Positions 43,152-47,853 of a DNA stretch of 64,000 nucleotides are shown here, one piece after another. The DNA is from Chlamydiota bacterium (GTDB taxonomy: Bacteria; Chlamydiota; Chlamydiia; Chlamydiales; JAAKFR01): contig JAJFLX010000012.1 in assembly GCA_021772465.1 (NCBI GenBank), forward strand, positions 65,404 through 129,403, written 5' to 3'. Within the stretch, counting starts at the first letter, position 1. Each line of letters begins with the position of its first letter. The notes beneath the pieces were generated by a model. It did not search any database. It was not told the DNA's origin and worked only from the letters and a program-made list of their open reading frames with translations. Both the position numbers and the translations under genes were made by a program.

Positions 43152-43844
43152 ATGAAGAAACGACTGAGTAAAACTCTAGCGGCAGCGGGCGTCGCTTCAA
43201 GACGAGCGTGTGAATCTTTGATTTTTGATGGCCTCGTCCAAGTCAACGGCCAGACCGTGCGCATCCCTCAAACTCTCGTTGACCTGGAGCACGACACGGT
43301 GCGTGTCAATGGAGAGCAGGTAGGAAAAGAGGAGGCGAAGGTCTATTTCCTCTTCCATAAGCCCGCCGGCTATCTCTGCACTAGTGACCCCGTTCCACGC
43401 TCTGTTCTCAATTTTTTTTCACACCTTCCTCACCGCCTTTTTACCGTGGGGCGTCTTGACAAAGAGACCTCTGGACTCCTACTTGTCACAAATGACGGCA
43501 CCTTTGCCCACCATGTGATCCACCCCTCATTTGGGGTCAAAAAACATTACATTGCAAAAACAGGGCAAGAGATCACACCTGAACACCTTAAAAAGCTCTC
43601 TTTGGGGATAGAAATAGAGGGGAGCCGCGTAATACCCTTCGCGGTCAAAAAAGTGAGGCGAGGCACTGTTAAAATCGTTGTCAAAGATGGAAAAAAACAC
43701 GAAGTGCGCCTTCTTCTTGAGGCTGCAGGGCTTACCGTACGTGAACTCGTCCGCTTTCAAGTCGGCTCTCTCTCTTTGGACAACCTAGCTGCTGGCTCCT
43801 ACCGCGTTCTTTCGAAAGAAGAAATCTCCTCATTTGAAAAATAA
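43152..43844 (+). CDS. rluB: RsuA/RluB-family pseudouridine synthase
   Basis: 230 aa. S4 domain (RLSKTLAAAGVASRR) and catalytic GRLDKETSGLLLVTNDG. Confidence 0.88.
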   Translation: MKKRLSKTLAAAGVASRRACESLIFDGLVQVNGQTVRIPQTLVDLEHDTVRVNGEQVGKEEAKVYFLFHKPAGYLCTSDPVPRSVLNFFSHLPHRLFTVGRLDKETSGLLLVTNDGTFAHHVIHPSFGVKKHYIAKTGQEITPEHLKKLSLGIEIEGSRVIPFAVKKVRRGTVKIVVKDGKKHEVRLLLEAAGLTVRELVRFQVGSLSLDNLAAGSYRVLSKEEISSFEK

Positions 43845-43901
43845 TTTTACATTCACTACATTCCGGTTCATGCATTGCATCATGAAAAAAGGAGTCATGT
43901 A

Positions 43902-44312
43902 ATGAAAAAATCCGATCTCGCTAAACTCGCCCTATTTGGCATCAGCGCGGGGCTCGTAGCCGGTGGCTGCCAACAAAAAGCGAACAAAAATGAAAGCCAC
44001 GATGCCAAGAAAAATGGCAACAATGCTGAGCAATCGGCGCAAGATATGGAAAGCTTTAAAGCCTCTCTCTCTCCAGAAGCTAAAAAACAATTTGACGAGC
44101 TCGATGCCAAGCACAAAATGATGGCTGTTGAGATGGCAAATCAAGAGTGCAAAGGGAAAAATAAGTGCTCTGGTATCGGGGGATGTGCGACGAAAGACAA
44201 CTCCTGCGCGGGCAAAAACAGCTGCAAAGGGAAGGGTGGACCTCCAGTAGACAGCCCAGAGAAGGCCGTAGAAGTGCAGTACAAAGCGCAAATGAATGGT
44301 GATAAGAAGTAA
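43902..44312 (+). CDS. Secreted Cys-rich peptide precursor (bufferin-like RiPP precursor candidate)
   Basis: AAGGAG lies 7 nt upstream of the ATG at 43902. Signal sequence MKKSDLAKLALFGISAGLVAGGC, Lys/Glu/Asn-rich linker, then ECKGKNKCSGIGGCATKDNSCAGKNSCKGKGG. It sits immediately upstream of the DUF692 gene. Confidence 0.7.
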   Translation: MKKSDLAKLALFGISAGLVAGGCQQKANKNESHDAKKNGNNAEQSAQDMESFKASLSPEAKKQFDELDAKHKMMAVEMANQECKGKNKCSGIGGCATKDNSCAGKNSCKGKGGPPVDSPEKAVEVQYKAQMNGDKK

Positions 44313-44354
44313 TTCTTGCTCTTTCGCGCGAAAAGTGAATAAGGTGTGTGTCAT

Positions 44355-45194
44355 ATGACACACGCCTTTGACATCACCAACCTTGGAATCGGCATTGGAC
44401 TGAGACCTGTTCACTATGATGAGATCTACTCTCTTGAGCCTGACATTGATTGGTTCGAGATCATCAGTGAAAACTACATGGTCGAGGGGGGCAAACCTCT
44501 CGAGCACCTCGATAAAATCCTCGAACGCTACCCTGTTGTGCAACACGGCGTCAACCTCGCGATAGGAAGCCCCACCCCTCTTGATTGGGACTACCTGCGG
44601 CGCCTCAAGAGGCTCGTGGCTCGCACGAAAACCCCATGGCTCTCTGATCATTTGAGCTGGGGACGCCTTCCTGGCGCTCACTTCCACGACCTGCTCCCCC
44701 TTCCCTACACGCAGGAAGTCATTGATTATGTCGCCGAAAGAGCGCGTATTGTCCAAGACTTTTTAGAGATCCCCTTTGCACTTGAAAATCTTTCTTCTTA
44801 TGTCGCCTACACAGACGATTCTATGCCCGAGTGGGAGTTCTACTCTCAAGTAGTTGAGAAGGGGGGAATTTTTATGATGCTCGATGTGAATAATATCTAC
44901 GTCTCGAGCCGCAATCATGGCTTTGATCCCATGACGTACATCAACTCCATACCCTTGAGCCGCGTCATTCAAATTCATTTAGCTGGGCACTCTGACCATG
45001 GGGACTATGTACTCGATACGCATGATCACCCTGTACGCGATGAGGTGTGGGCGCTCTATAGCGAGGTGTGGTCTCGAGCCCCTGTCTCGACCCTTTTAGA
45101 GTGGGATGACAATTTTGTGAGTTTTGAAGAGACCTGGGCCGAGGCGCTTAGGGCTAAGGCCTTCCAAAAGGAGCTTCATGAGTCGACTCTTTGA
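44355..45194 (+). CDS. DUF692 / MbnB-like multinuclear non-heme iron oxidase (MNIO)
   Basis: GIGLRPVHY, DWFEIISENY, HGVNL, SDHLSW, ALENLSSY, MLDVNNIYV, HLAGH, LDTHDH and LLEWD, the conserved TIM-barrel metal-ligand pattern of DUF692. AAGGTG lies 8 nt upstream of the ATG at 44355. Confidence 0.88.
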   Translation: MTHAFDITNLGIGIGLRPVHYDEIYSLEPDIDWFEIISENYMVEGGKPLEHLDKILERYPVVQHGVNLAIGSPTPLDWDYLRRLKRLVARTKTPWLSDHLSWGRLPGAHFHDLLPLPYTQEVIDYVAERARIVQDFLEIPFALENLSSYVAYTDDSMPEWEFYSQVVEKGGIFMMLDVNNIYVSSRNHGFDPMTYINSIPLSRVIQIHLAGHSDHGDYVLDTHDHPVRDEVWALYSEVWSRAPVSTLLEWDDNFVSFEETWAEALRAKAFQKELHESTL

Positions 45195-45927
45195 GACGCA
45201 AGTTTGGTTTGGATCTATCATTCGGCAGCCGCTTCAGACTGACCACTCGCTTCCAGAGTCCGTTTGTAGTGAGGCAGCTCACTTCATAGCGCCAAGTCCC
45301 ACACTCACTCCTCATAAACGGCTGGAAATCTACCACCAGCAGTACTGGTGGCGACTTCTCGACTGTTTGCAAAACAATTTTCCTTTTCTTACCAAGCTCC
45401 TTGGGGCTGATACGTTCAATCAAAAAATTGGAATCCCCTACCTCTCAGCCCACCCTCCCTCTGATTGGGCACTTTGCAAACTGGGGCAATCGCTCCCTTT
45501 GTGGTTAGCAAAGCAAAAAGAGCCCAGACGGCTGGTCGATGCTGCGCGCATCGATGCCGCCTCAGAACACGCTTTTTGGTGTGAGCAGAAACCCACGGCT
45601 GATTTTTCAGCCAAAAAACTCCACCTTCAACCCTTTGTTCATCTTTTCGAGTTGGAAGAGGATCTCTTTGAATATCGTGACCAACTGCTCCTAGGCAAAG
45701 AGATAAAAGTCGACTCTACCCCTTGCTACCGGGCGCTCTATCGAAACCGTGAAAGCCAGGTTCGGTGGAAACCTCTCACCCGAGTTGAGTACTCTCTTTT
45801 GCGGGCTTTTGAGTTAGGATCGAGTATTGAAGAGGCGTGCAGCTCTCTTCGACCGAGCAAAAAACTTGAAGAGTTGATTGTCATCTGGTTTCGTGAGTGG
45901 ACCTACCTGGGATGGTTTACCTCATGA
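45178..45927 (+). CDS. DUF2063-type partner protein of the MNIO enzyme
   Basis: 249 aa from the ATG at 45178, overlapping the DUF692 stop by 17 nt. Size, position and N-terminal pattern (LFETQVWFGSIIRQP...LEIYHQQYWWRL) fit DUF2063. Confidence 0.7.
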   Translation: MSRLFETQVWFGSIIRQPLQTDHSLPESVCSEAAHFIAPSPTLTPHKRLEIYHQQYWWRLLDCLQNNFPFLTKLLGADTFNQKIGIPYLSAHPPSDWALCKLGQSLPLWLAKQKEPRRLVDAARIDAASEHAFWCEQKPTADFSAKKLHLQPFVHLFELEEDLFEYRDQLLLGKEIKVDSTPCYRALYRNRESQVRWKPLTRVEYSLLRAFELGSSIEEACSSLRPSKKLEELIVIWFREWTYLGWFTS

Positions 45928-46178
45928 TACTCACACTTTTTCTCTCTTCTTTATTTGTTGGGGCAGCTTTAGGAGTCTTGCAGCGGATTCGCAAAAAAAG
46001 AAGAGTGCAGCGCGCAAGGGAAGTTCCTTTGCTCGAGGCGAGAGAGCGTATTGACCTACTTGAAAAACAGCTAGGTGAAACTAAAGAGCTTGCTCTTCGC
46101 GCCTTTTATGAAGAAGAGCTTCAGGTAGCCAAAAATCAACTCGCCCGCGCCCACCACCAGAAGAGATCAGCCTCCTAA
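45924..46178 (+). CDS. Small single-pass membrane protein with coiled-coil tail
   Basis: ATGA start/stop overlap with the DUF2063 gene. MILTLFLSSLFVGAALGVL TM segment followed by a basic stretch and a helical tail. Its last ~19 codons are duplicated at 49358-49420. Confidence 0.55.
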   Translation: MILTLFLSSLFVGAALGVLQRIRKKRRVQRAREVPLLEARERIDLLEKQLGETKELALRAFYEEELQVAKNQLARAHHQKRSAS

Positions 46179-46303: not shown

Positions 46304-47047
46304 TCAGTGAAGCATTGATATACCCTTACCAGTCATTAGTGTAGCGAATAGCTCAGCTACATCTCTCTCTTTATTTCTCTCGTCAGCCCTCAAAAGCAAG
46401 CCATGAATTTGACGCAGTGTTTTACTCTTAGCTCCCTCAACCTTTTGAATGACCGTTCTACCGTATCTGTCAGTAATTTGAGGATTCGCCCCCCACTCCA
46501 AAAGAGCCCTGACAACCGCGGCATATCCAAGTGTAGTTGCCCTCTGAAGAGCAGTATCGCCATTTTGACGCAAAGCATTGGGGTTGGCCCCTGCAGTTAA
46601 AAGAATCCTGGCAACTGAGGCATGTCCCTTTAGAGCTGCCACTATAAGAGCAGTATCGCCACCCTCATCCACAGCATTGGGGTCGGCCCCCCACTCCAAA
46701 AGAGCCCTGACAACCGCGGCATATCCAAGTGTAGTTGCCCTCTGAAGAGCAGTATCGCCACCCTCATCCACAGCATTGGGGTCGGCCCCTCCCTCTAAGA
46801 GAGCCCTGACATCCTCAGCATGACCACGGGTAACCGCCCAGAACAAAACTCCAGAAAGATCTCTATTCACCGGCTCTCTACCGGCCCCTCCCTCTTGCTG
46901 CACCTCAGGAGCTCCAGCGAGTACTCTAAGAGCAACCTCCGCTGTAGCAGCAGCGCCTTCATTTTCAGCATCGGGATTAGCCCCCTCTGCGACTCTATCA
47001 AATGTTTTCGATGGAATAGAACCTGATGAACCGGGAGCAGGAGTCAT
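46304..47047 (-). CDS. Ankyrin-repeat protein (paralog 1)
   Basis: 247 aa with about 5 ANK repeats (GDTALQRATTLGYAAVVRALLEWGADPNAVDE etc.). Its N- and C-termini are shared with the neighbouring paralog. Confidence 0.85.
   Translation of the reverse strand: MTPAPGSSGSIPSKTFDRVAEGANPDAENEGAAATAEVALRVLAGAPEVQQEGGAGREPVNRDLSGVLFWAVTRGHAEDVRALLEGGADPNAVDEGGDTALQRATTLGYAAVVRALLEWGADPNAVDEGGDTALIVAALKGHASVARILLTAGANPNALRQNGDTALQRATTLGYAAVVRALLEWGANPQITDRYGRTVIQKVEGAKSKTLRQIHGLLLRADERNKERDVAELFATLMTGKGISMLH
46488..46790 (-). repeat. Intragenic near-perfect repeats of ankyrin modules
   Basis: A 75-bp perfect repeat at 46488-46562 and 46686-46760 (198-bp offset). A further ~44-bp repeat at about 46647-46690 and 46746-46789 (99-bp offset). 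Confidence 0.85.
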
Positions 47048-47241: not shown

Positions 47242-47853
47242 CTAGTGAAGCATTGATTTGCCCATGCCAGGCACTAATGCAGCAAATAGCTCAGCTACAT
47301 CTTTCTCTTTTTTTGCCTCCTCAAGAGTCCTTACAACTGAGGCATGTTCCGTCCGAACTGCCGCCATAAGAGCAGTTCTGCCAAACTCATCCACAGCATT
47401 GAGGTCAGCCCGACCCTCTAAGAGAGTCCTGACCACTGAGTTATATCCAAATTCAGTTGCAAGCATAAGAGCAGTATCGCCATCCTTATCCACAGCGTTG
47501 GGATCTGCTCCACGCTCCAAAAGAGCCTTGACAACTGAAGCATGTCCCTTTAGAGCTGCCACTATAAGAGCAGGATCACCATCCTCATCCACAGCATTAG
47601 GGTCGACCCCCTCATCTAAGAATTCCCTGACACTCCGAGCTGAGCCTCGGTCAATCGCCCAGAAAAAAGGTCCAGAAAGATCTCTATCTATCGACTCTCG
47701 ATTGACTCCTCTCGCTTGCGGCATAGCGAGTACTCTAAGAGCAACCTCAGCTGTAGCAGCAGCGCCTTCATCTACAGTATTGGGATCCACTCTTGAAGCA
47801 GAATCGCATACTTTCGATGGACTATAACCTGATAAACCAGGAGCGTGAGTCAC
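47242..47853 (-). CDS. Ankyrin-repeat protein (paralog 2)
   Basis: 203 aa. N-terminus MTHAPGLSGYSPSK...EGAAATAEVALRVLA and C-terminus KEKDVAELFAALVPGMGKSMLH parallel paralog 1. The 3' flanks are also homologous (46283 vs 47220 onward). Confidence 0.85.
   Translation of the reverse strand: MTHAPGLSGYSPSKVCDSASRVDPNTVDEGAAATAEVALRVLAMPQARGVNRESIDRDLSGPFFWAIDRGSARSVREFLDEGVDPNAVDEDGDPALIVAALKGHASVVKALLERGADPNAVDKDGDTALMLATEFGYNSVVRTLLEGRADLNAVDEFGRTALMAAVRTEHASVVRTLEEAKKEKDVAELFAALVPGMGKSMLH

Follow-up and report, generated by a model that had tools for sequence, protein, structure and literature searches.

This locus raises the question of whether a small gene located just upstream of 2 genes for peptide-modifying proteins encodes their substrate and, if so, what type of precursor it represents. 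The gene, which we refer to as bufA, covers positions 43902 to 44312 on the forward strand of a 64,000-nucleotide stretch of DNA from an uncultured environmental Chlamydiota bacterium (contig JAJFLX010000012.1), here called the window, and is followed by bufB and bufC on the same strand. An earlier note on this DNA had described its product as an atypical precursor of the bufferin type. Bufferins are the largest group of peptides of ribosomal origin with post-translational modifications (RiPPs) that are modified by oxidative enzymes dependent on multinuclear nonheme iron (MNIOs), and they represent a recently recognized copper defense. We argue that the window gene is probably a divergent relative of the copper-binding bufferin 2 (Buf2) peptides, with a lipid anchor. 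The probability that bufA encodes the substrate of BufB and BufC, a divergent Buf2-type thiooxazole peptide that binds copper and is embedded in a small lipoprotein, is in our estimate roughly three in four.

The open reading frame (ORF) is real and encodes 136 amino acids followed by a stop codon, as read directly from the sequence, and an AGGAG motif resembling a Shine-Dalgarno sequence is located at positions 43890 to 43894 on the forward strand, 7 nucleotides upstream of the ATG codon. The translated product starts with MKKSDLAKLALFGISAGLVAGG, followed by Cys23, and contains further cysteines at positions 83, 89, 95, 102, and 108. These 5 residues form a core with the spacing C-x5-C-x5-C-x6-C-x5-C, just as the earlier note had read it, and 4 of them are followed by (K/S/A)-G, the exception being C95, which is followed by A-T. 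No second gene with a core of this type was found in a scan of all 6 reading frames of the window.

The core, CKGKNKCSGIGGCATKDNSCAGKNSCKGKGG, spans residues 83 to 113 (44148 to 44240) and was delimited with the NCBIfam hidden Markov model (HMM) for BufA2 (NF050166) and an alignment to Buf2 proteins. The BufA2 model matched residues 74 to 112 at profile positions 22 to 62 of 79 with an E value of 6e-9, there was no other notable NCBIfam match for the precursor, and all 38 homologs matched the same HMM. The window core aligned column for column with 2 Buf2 proteins, P0037, which is a 12-Cys form whose cluster at 90% identity includes a member named as a Thermoanaerobaculia bacterium, and P0038, which contains a single six-Cys core unit. 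The unit ends in GGC in P0037 and P0038, and in GGP, GGA, or GGS in the chlamydial proteins. The window core contains the first 5 cysteines of the Buf2 unit (Cys-I to Cys-V), with Pro114 at the position of Cys-VI.

Three alignments were used to study the conservation of these residues, one of 35 orthologs (A2), one of 126 sequences (A3), and one that includes relatives with reduced or no core cysteines (A4). Cys-VI was replaced by Pro, Ala, or Ser in 35 of the 35 orthologs, 34 of which had kept Cys-I and one of which had lost both. The residues C89, C95, C102, and C108 were invariant in A2 as well as across the 126 relatives, and C83 was at least 90% conserved in A2. Because the 4 cysteines are invariant in 126 relatives and the E value of the BufA2 match is as low as 6e-9, the core pattern is unlikely to be due to chance. 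The precursor is thus atypical, as the earlier note had proposed, with a Buf2-like core and a set of 5 cysteines that is conserved rather than a one-off.

Its departure from the described cysteine layouts also held up in the alignments, and the BufA2 score was 36 bits as compared to a cut-off of 60. The further suggestion of a new precursor subclass stands in part, in that the protein matches no described family in both cysteine count and length, but its core is still of the Buf2 type. Judged by these sequence comparisons, the window protein falls within the Buf2-type bufferins as a new five-Cys scaffolded form. No match to DUF2282, the Buf1 family, was obtained in Pfam at E values of 1 or below, and the EGKCG motif that was used as a test for Buf_EGKCG and oxazolins was absent from the translated window protein. 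The Pfam search at E values of 1 or below recovered only weak matches to DUF305, G0-G1_switch_2, and DUF6809 and no family of chlamydial Cys-rich outer-membrane proteins; an identity as an OmcA-like protein of that kind was dropped for this reason.

The 2 genes downstream of bufA were assigned to the families expected for a bufferin operon. The bufB gene (44355 to 45194, forward strand) starts 42 nucleotides downstream of bufA and encodes an MNIO (DUF692) maturase of 279 amino acids, which matched the Pfam family MbnB_TglH_ChrH (PF05114) with 343 bits and, over its full length, the NCBIfam model MNIO_BufB (NF050167) with 321.3 bits, above the curated equivalog cut-off of 310. The bufC gene (45178 to 45927, forward strand), for which the ATG at 45178 is the most likely start codon, shares 17 nucleotides with the end of bufB and encodes a DUF2063 partner protein of 249 amino acids. 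This protein scored 52.8 bits against Pfam DUF2063 (PF09836; cut-off 27.2), with a weak match to NGO1945_C (17.9 against 27) and a score of 25.7 against 142 for the NCBIfam model HvfC, and its N-terminus, MSRLFETQVWFG, matches MSQRVEIQKWFG in locus L005. The bufA-bufB-bufC order has been described as strictly conserved for bufferins (PMC12452194).

This gene order was also found in 11 of the 11 orthologous loci with downstream sequence, with identities to the window of 72% to 85% for bufB and 40% to 50% for bufC. A word-indexed search yielded 36 full-length homologs of the precursor with 50% to 68% identity, and the 2 for which a source name was given were both Chlamydiales metagenome-assembled genomes (MAGs). 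The scan of GTDB representative genomes identified 12 loci, all of them in Chlamydiales or Chlamydiia MAGs, and every named relative of the window protein, as retrieved by sequence, is a member of the Chlamydiota. Locus L010 contained 2 adjacent bufA-like matches (2023 to 2721). In L005 and L007, bufC is succeeded by genes for a LemA protein and an M48 peptidase; these were rejected as members of the system since they are absent from the window and hence not conserved.

What the enzymes would do to the core can be approached by analogy. In the Buf2 peptide of Caulobacter vibrioides, the 4 central cysteines show a mass change of -4 Da, and Cys-I and Cys-VI are unmodified and likely joined by a disulfide bond (PMC11626156). 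Furthermore, the formation of 5-thiooxazoles is widespread among MNIOs that have PME-type 1 (DUF2063) partners (PMC13097082). The residues modified in the window protein would by this analogy be C89, C95, C102, and C108. The absence of Cys-VI means that Cys-I (C83) is left without an intramolecular disulfide partner, and C83 might instead serve as a free thiol ligand or as a handle for an intermolecular disulfide bond.

The signal peptide, residues 1 to 22, and the lipobox Cys23 (43902 to 43970, forward strand) are predicted to be of the signal peptidase II type. The N-terminus has the features of a Sec-type signal, in which a hydrophobic stretch and then the lipobox come after K2 and K3. The earlier note had pointed to the lipobox LVAGGC as a weak one; its presence is confirmed, but it is not weak, as GISAGLVAGGC fits a pattern of the PROSITE PS51257 type, with Cys23 in the range of 15 to 35 and lysines at 2 of the first 7 residues, and 34 of the 35 orthologs passed a looser lipobox test from which the {DERK}(6) term had been omitted. 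With C23 at least 90% conserved in A2, the proposal that the product is lipid-anchored rather than released is plausible, and Cys23 is a likely site of lipidation. The idea of a lipidated bufferin is not in itself new, because lipoprotein signals have already been predicted for about 16% of the Buf2 proteins (PMC12452194) and for some bufferins in another study, which has shown experimentally that the MNIO product DybA is lipidated (PMC13056109).

The signal peptide was unusually well conserved, with a mean top-residue frequency of 0.80 in A2, identical to the value of 0.80 for the core, and with A10 and G13 at least 90% conserved over the 126 sequences in A3, although the mean column identity was only 24%. 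For Buf1, preliminary data place the signal peptide within the sequence that BufB-BufC recognizes (PMC12452194, Discussion). The conservation observed here agrees with the published idea that the maturase complex recognizes the signal peptides of bufferins.

The stretch that joins signal peptide and core had been described as a charged, helix-like linker of about 75 amino acids. The gap between Cys23 and Cys83 is only 59 residues, and it is not a single spacer, although part of it is indeed predicted to be helical. Residues 24 to 45 (43971 to 44036) form a variable, low-complexity tether rich in K, N, A, and Q, with a mean top-residue frequency of 0.39 and an entropy of 2.49 bits in A2 and values below 50 in the predicted local distance difference test (pLDDT). 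Residues 46 to 82 (44037 to 44147), which include an HKMMAVEM motif, had a mean frequency of 0.79, as did the C-terminal region at residues 114 to 133. AlphaFold2 predicted helices at residues 40 to 54, 58 to 66, 69 to 79, and 119 to 133 from the 126 sequences, with block pLDDT values of 83 to 89, a mean pLDDT of 61.7, and a predicted template modeling score of 0.48, and the 35 sequences gave the same picture with lower confidence (mean pLDDT 52).

The supposed tail without cysteines, PPVDSPEKAVEVQYKAQMNGDKK, is present, but its real nature is that of a conserved helix at residues 119 to 133 with the motif KAVEVQYKAQM (pLDDT about 83), which together with a short variable end is encoded by positions 44241 to 44309. 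The structural model thus resolves the linker into a variable tether and a conserved hairpin of helices, with the tail as a third helix that is likewise conserved. The invariant residues in A2 were L56, F64, L67, D68, H71, M74, and M78 in the helical region and A122, Q126, and Q130 in the C-terminal helix.

The helices could be read, along the lines of the earlier note, as a leader-like recognition element that docks on the DUF2063/RRE partner and thereby allows BufB to modify the core, given that residues 46 to 82 are confidently predicted as helical and conserved to about the same degree as the core (0.79 compared with 0.80) and that the partner proteins of RiPPs usually bind a segment outside the core (PMC12452194, Introduction). 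However, there is no encoded protease that removes the segment, which would therefore remain in the mature lipoprotein, and the signal peptide shows the same degree of conservation (0.80) and is the element implicated by the sole published hint, that for Buf1 (PMC12452194). The linker helices are also retained, along with the third helix, in relatives without any core cysteine, and in stand-alone paralogs far from bufBC. We consider a leader role unlikely and do not favor it over a scaffold for the Buf2-type core.

A different question is whether the scaffold itself is a metal module. Helical-wheel angles placed F64, L67, D68, H71, M74, A75, and M78 on one helix face within an arc of 120 degrees. 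The His/Met motif was found in 35 of the 35 window orthologs, in 4 of the 105 relatives of P0099, and in 15 of 150 representatives. The sister clade has Gly/Ala/Leu/Leu at the positions of the His/Met motif, and because it carries Gly/Leu/Leu at those of H71, M74, and M78, we regard the His/Met set as a clade-specific gain. The Asp/His/Met/Met face may add ligands, or it may be structural.

In the former case, H71, M74, and M78, possibly with D68, would form a Cu(I) site in a periplasmic metal module to which the thiooxazole loop is an add-on, an account that is compatible with the preferred reading of a Buf2-type substrate and that we hold to be possible but doubtful. It draws on the invariance of these 4 residues in the 35 orthologs, their position on one helix face and their clade-specific gain, on the His and one or more Met residues of the motif being largely kept in Cys-less relatives such as P0083, P0089, and P0094, and on weak, sub-threshold Pfam matches to Metal_resist, LTXXQ, and DUF305. 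Conversely, all of these Pfam matches are below the cut-off, the Cys-less P0117 and P0142 have lost most of the His/Met motif, and M74 and M78 replace Leu at seemingly core-facing positions and may therefore be purely structural.

The Pfam matches, to Metal_resist in 10 of 35, LTXXQ in 6 of 35, and DUF305 in 2 of 35 sequences, were rejected as indicators of homology, with E values of at least 0.004 throughout for the first two and a score of 17.3 bits against a cut-off of 27 for DUF305. Homology to CpxP, Spy, and ZraP was rejected as well, as the hhalign comparison to Escherichia coli Spy gave a probability of 4% over a motif of only 16 residues; the resemblance to Spy is at the motif level (LSPEAKKQF and LTPEQKKQF). 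A search of PDB sequences with the family profile gave no matches at E values of 10 or below.

To place the window protein in a broader context, a profile search was made against 1.84 billion cluster representatives, which resulted in 735 matches at E values of 1e-3 or below, 241 of which were at 1e-10 or below. The whole profile was spanned by most of the top 150 representatives. Many members were longer, 200 to 435 amino acids, with the hairpin-core-helix unit at the C-terminal end after a low-complexity region. Among these, P0087, P0113, P0164, P0170, P0172, P0184, and others had long regions rich in Q, N, S, and G ahead of the unit, and the low-complexity regions of many long members were dotted with extra cysteines in motifs of the G-C-G/A type. 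It was also noted that P0048 (256 amino acids) contained 2 complete hairpin-core-helix units in one polypeptide.

The named relatives of P0099 were from Neochlamydia sp. S13, Parachlamydiaceae, Waddliaceae, and Chlamydiales MAGs. In Neochlamydia S13, 2 tandem scaffolded precursors with 6 cysteines are followed by an MNIO gene, the product of which is 75% identical to the window BufB, and by an HvfC-like gene, and another paralog stands alone beside nucleotide-transporter genes, far from bufBC.

Five-Cys cores were common in this chlamydial family. Cys-I was present and Cys-VI absent in 71 core units from the representatives, both were present in 55, both were absent in 7, and only Cys-VI was present in 2. 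Since 71 of the 78 units without Cys-VI have kept Cys-I, we argue that Cys-I has a role beyond the disulfide bond. The same retention, together with the odd count of 5 cysteines in the core of the mature protein, might suggest an unmodified Cys-rich envelope lipoprotein that is cross-linked by intermolecular disulfide bonds as in the chlamydial outer-membrane complex, with the proximity to bufBC being incidental. Chlamydiae are known for Cys-rich envelope proteins that are cross-linked in this manner (some background is available in PMC4217174). However, the conservation of the bufBC order in 11 of 11 loci, the homology of the core to Buf2, and the lack of a Pfam match to Cys-rich outer-membrane proteins at E values of 1 or below make this explanation very improbable.

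The core has also eroded further in parts of the family. A total of 20 of the 150 representatives did not fit any four-Cys Buf2 core pattern, some having no core cysteines at all and others 2 (C-x5-C). Nearly all of the 20 had the lipobox of the window clade, many had a helix 2 motif of the HK..M type, and most had a third helix of the NKAVE.QY type. In alignment A4, the loop was cleanly deleted in frame from P0083, P0094, P0169, P0117, P0142, and P0148, and two-Cys C-x5-C remnants were left between the same helices in P0063, P0067, P0192, P0108, and P0059. A series of forms with 6, 5, 2, and no core cysteines thus exists within the family.

The Cys-less forms at 2 of the loci had kept only the lipobox cysteine. 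At L017 (1703 to 3713), the gene for the Cys-less P0083 is located directly upstream of an intact-looking MNIO gene and a DUF2063 gene, and at L019 (4001 to 5097) the gene for P0169 is located upstream of a bufB gene within which the contig ends and whose product is 73% identical to that of the window. The persistence of the helices in relatives that have lost the core suggests that the scaffold is useful without it.

A large chlamydial family of precursors appears to have been missed by the published surveys of bufferins. In a 2025 census, the genomes of Protochlamydia amoebophila, Waddlia chondrophila, and Parachlamydia acanthamoebae were each recorded with one DUF692 and one DUF2063 protein and with zero counts for Buf1, Buf2, and Buf_EGKCG (PMC12452194, Table S2), and chlamydiae are not mentioned in its main text. 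C. vibrioides CB15 also scores 0/0 in that table, yet the species encodes both BufA1 and BufA2 (PMC11626156), and we attribute the CB15 zeros to precursor ORFs that are unannotated in that assembly. A zero in Table S2 is therefore suggestive but not a proof. Chlamydial MNIO/DUF2063 pairs would be listed without a precursor because the current HMMs and cut-offs appear to miss the family.

The counts also bear on whether the window protein is simply an ordinary Buf2 member, in which the missing sixth cysteine and the extra helices are within the described variation. Published Buf2 precursors are 51 to 367 amino acids long, with 6 cysteines in 90% and 12 in the rest, a size range that together with the 16% of lipoproteins covers the window protein (PMC12452194). 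In addition, the core is clearly Buf2-like and six-Cys forms on the same scaffold adjoin MNIO genes in Neochlamydia. On the other hand, the published description contains no five-Cys class (PMC12452194), the window protein falls below the BufA2 cut-off, and the Protochlamydia, Waddlia, and Parachlamydia genomes have DUF692 and DUF2063 but a Buf2 count of zero (PMC12452194, Table S2). We find it quite unlikely that the window protein is an ordinary member in this sense.

Several observations weigh against the preferred interpretation of bufA as a Buf2-type maturase substrate. The window protein lacks one of the 6 cysteines that define the Buf2 family, its BufA2 score does not reach the curated cut-off (36 bits of the 60 needed), and the residue at lipobox position -3 is Ala, which is less canonical than the Val of the family consensus. 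No DoxX gene and no metal-related gene were found in the immediate neighborhood, although doxX is likewise absent from the buf2 operon of C. vibrioides (PMC11626156). The pLDDT of the Cys core was below 50 in both AlphaFold2 runs, so the model provides neither a geometry of the loop nor a contact between the His/Met face and the core, and a Foldseek search of the PDB with the better of the models returned nothing below an E value of 6. Moreover, because Cys-less genes precede intact bufB genes, adjacency alone does not prove a substrate relationship.

If bufA does encode the substrate, the precursor of 136 amino acids would be made in the cytoplasm, where BufB and its DUF2063 partner BufC would oxidize core cysteines, presumably the 4 central ones as in Buf2, to 5-thiooxazoles. 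The conserved signal peptide would then carry the product through the Sec pathway, Cys23 would be modified with diacylglycerol, and signal peptidase II would remove the signal peptide, leaving a mature protein of about 114 amino acids that is attached in the periplasm through a flexible tether some 22 amino acids long. The mature protein would be a small helical bundle consisting of the hairpin and the C-terminal helix, in which the modified Cys loop connects helix 2 to helix 3, and the tethered domain would buffer copper in the periplasm.

The findings at the level of the family, which include a chlamydia-wide expansion, a five-Cys majority, the erosion of the core, and Cys-less genes ahead of an intact bufB (and of bufC in L017), are more notable than the single gene. 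We tentatively suggest, as a possibility of rather low probability, that environmental chlamydiae carry a large family of protein-embedded bufferins, in which an exported helical scaffold contains a Buf2 loop as an insert and is lipid-anchored in the window clade, where the loss of Cys-VI and the gain of the His/Met face would have created a metal site of different composition or a disulfide handle. The metal site would then consist of the thiooxazoles together with the free Cys83 thiol, the His/Met residues, or both, and the alternative would be an intermolecular disulfide handle. In such a family, the series of 6, 5, 2, and no core cysteines, with Cys-less genes still ahead of intact bufB genes and, if the contig extends far enough, of bufC, would imply an independent function for the scaffold and an action of the maturase in trans on the dispersed paralogs.

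A chlamydial family of this kind would extend the bufferins to obligate intracellular Chlamydiota, in environmental lineages only. Legionella pneumophila lives in amoebae, which poison ingested bacteria with copper. Up to 5 Buf1-type clusters are present in L. pneumophila, and Chlamydia trachomatis and C. pneumoniae have zero counts for all components (PMC12452194, with Table S2 for the chlamydial counts). An amoeba-copper setting would suit the presence of bufferins in environmental chlamydiae ecologically. The five-Cys form would also provide a natural experiment on whether the disulfide bond between Cys-I and Cys-VI is needed and on what Cys-I does alone, and the placement of the core in a scaffold is relevant to the question of whether folded proteins, as opposed to peptides, are modified by MNIOs.

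Other features of the locus concern its expression and surroundings. A hairpin with a 12-bp stem, AAGGTGTGTGTC/ATAT/GACACACGCCTT in the DNA and AAGGUGUGUGUC-AUAU-GACACACGCCUU in the RNA, is located between bufA and bufB (44341 to 44368, forward strand) and encloses the start codon of bufB (44355 to 44357), which lies at the boundary of loop and stem. The stretch of 68 nucleotides that contains the hairpin (44313 to 44380) had a predicted folding energy of -25.7 kcal/mol (z = -5.05), and none of 200 shuffled sequences folded as well. In loci L002 to L007, a homologous hairpin was followed by T6 to T9 and then at once by the ATG of bufB, and the copy in L008 was mismatched. The hairpin was absent from L009 and L011 to L013, where bufA and bufB abut or overlap. 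To judge from the copies in L002 to L007, the hairpin resembles a terminator or attenuator, which would fit a high expression of the precursor and a low expression of the maturase.

Upstream of bufA is a gene for an RsuA-like pseudouridine synthase, and gpmA and nifS/nifU-like genes are located on the other strand. This nifU-nifS-gpmA and rsuA-like synteny was kept in the 10 loci with upstream sequence, L006 beginning too near bufA. In L005 (4491 to 5942) and L007 (4416 to 5909), the rsuA-like gene and bufA are separated by a poorly conserved ORF of about 480 to 500 amino acids with a hydrophobic N-terminal region; 7 other loci have a gap of similar size at this place, and both the gap and the ORF are missing from the window and L002. 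A sigma-70-like site upstream of bufA (43834 to 43862) was dropped, as the promoter scan gave 3 sites against 2.2 in shuffled sequences. The end of bufC is overlapped by an ORF of 93 amino acids (45897 to 46178, forward strand), the N-terminal stretch of which is hydrophobic and precedes a charged region rich in Lys, Arg, and Glu, and 2 paralogous ORFs with ankyrin repeats are located further downstream on the reverse strand (46304 to 47047 and 47242 to 47853).

Of the known systems, Buf1 (DUF2282) and the Buf_EGKCG/oxazolin group resemble the window protein by analogy, as Sec-exported substrates of MNIO/DUF2063 pairs with thiooxazole chemistry and a copper-related function, but they differ from it in the DUF2282 domain, the EGKCG motif, and the layout of the cysteines. 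The predicted lipidated bufferins and DybA share with it a signal of the signal peptidase II type and a conserved lipobox cysteine on an MNIO substrate (PMC12452194; PMC13056109), and DybA is modified in the cytoplasm before it enters the lipoprotein pathway (PMC13056109), as proposed here for the window protein. However, DybA carries a ChrH-type macrocycle/hydantoin product and is not a thiooxazole bufferin, and the lipidation of bufferins is a prediction.

The precursors in Neochlamydia sp. S13 (AP017977.1) are similar in having the signal motif MKKxDLKKLALLG, the hairpin-core-helix architecture, and a position directly upstream of an MNIO gene whose product is 75% identical to the window BufB. 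Unlike the window protein, they are encoded by 2 tandem genes and have 6 cysteines, a signal of the signal peptidase I type without a lipobox, and Gly/Ala/Leu in place of the His/Met face. Compared with Buf2, as represented by BufA2 of C. vibrioides (NF050166), the window protein has 5 rather than 6 cysteines, with Pro/Ala/Ser at Cys-VI, a core that is flanked by a conserved helical hairpin on one side and a third helix on the other, a helix face with invariant Asp/His/Met/Met, a BufA2 score of 36 bits, below 60, and a host in the phylum Chlamydiota. Yet the two share a Sec-type signal peptide in place of a leader, a repeated C-x-G-x-N-x-C-K-G-x-G-G core with the same spacing from Cys-I to Cys-V, and the bufA-bufB-bufC order with an MNIO and a DUF2063 partner and without doxX, as in the buf2 operon of C. 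vibrioides.

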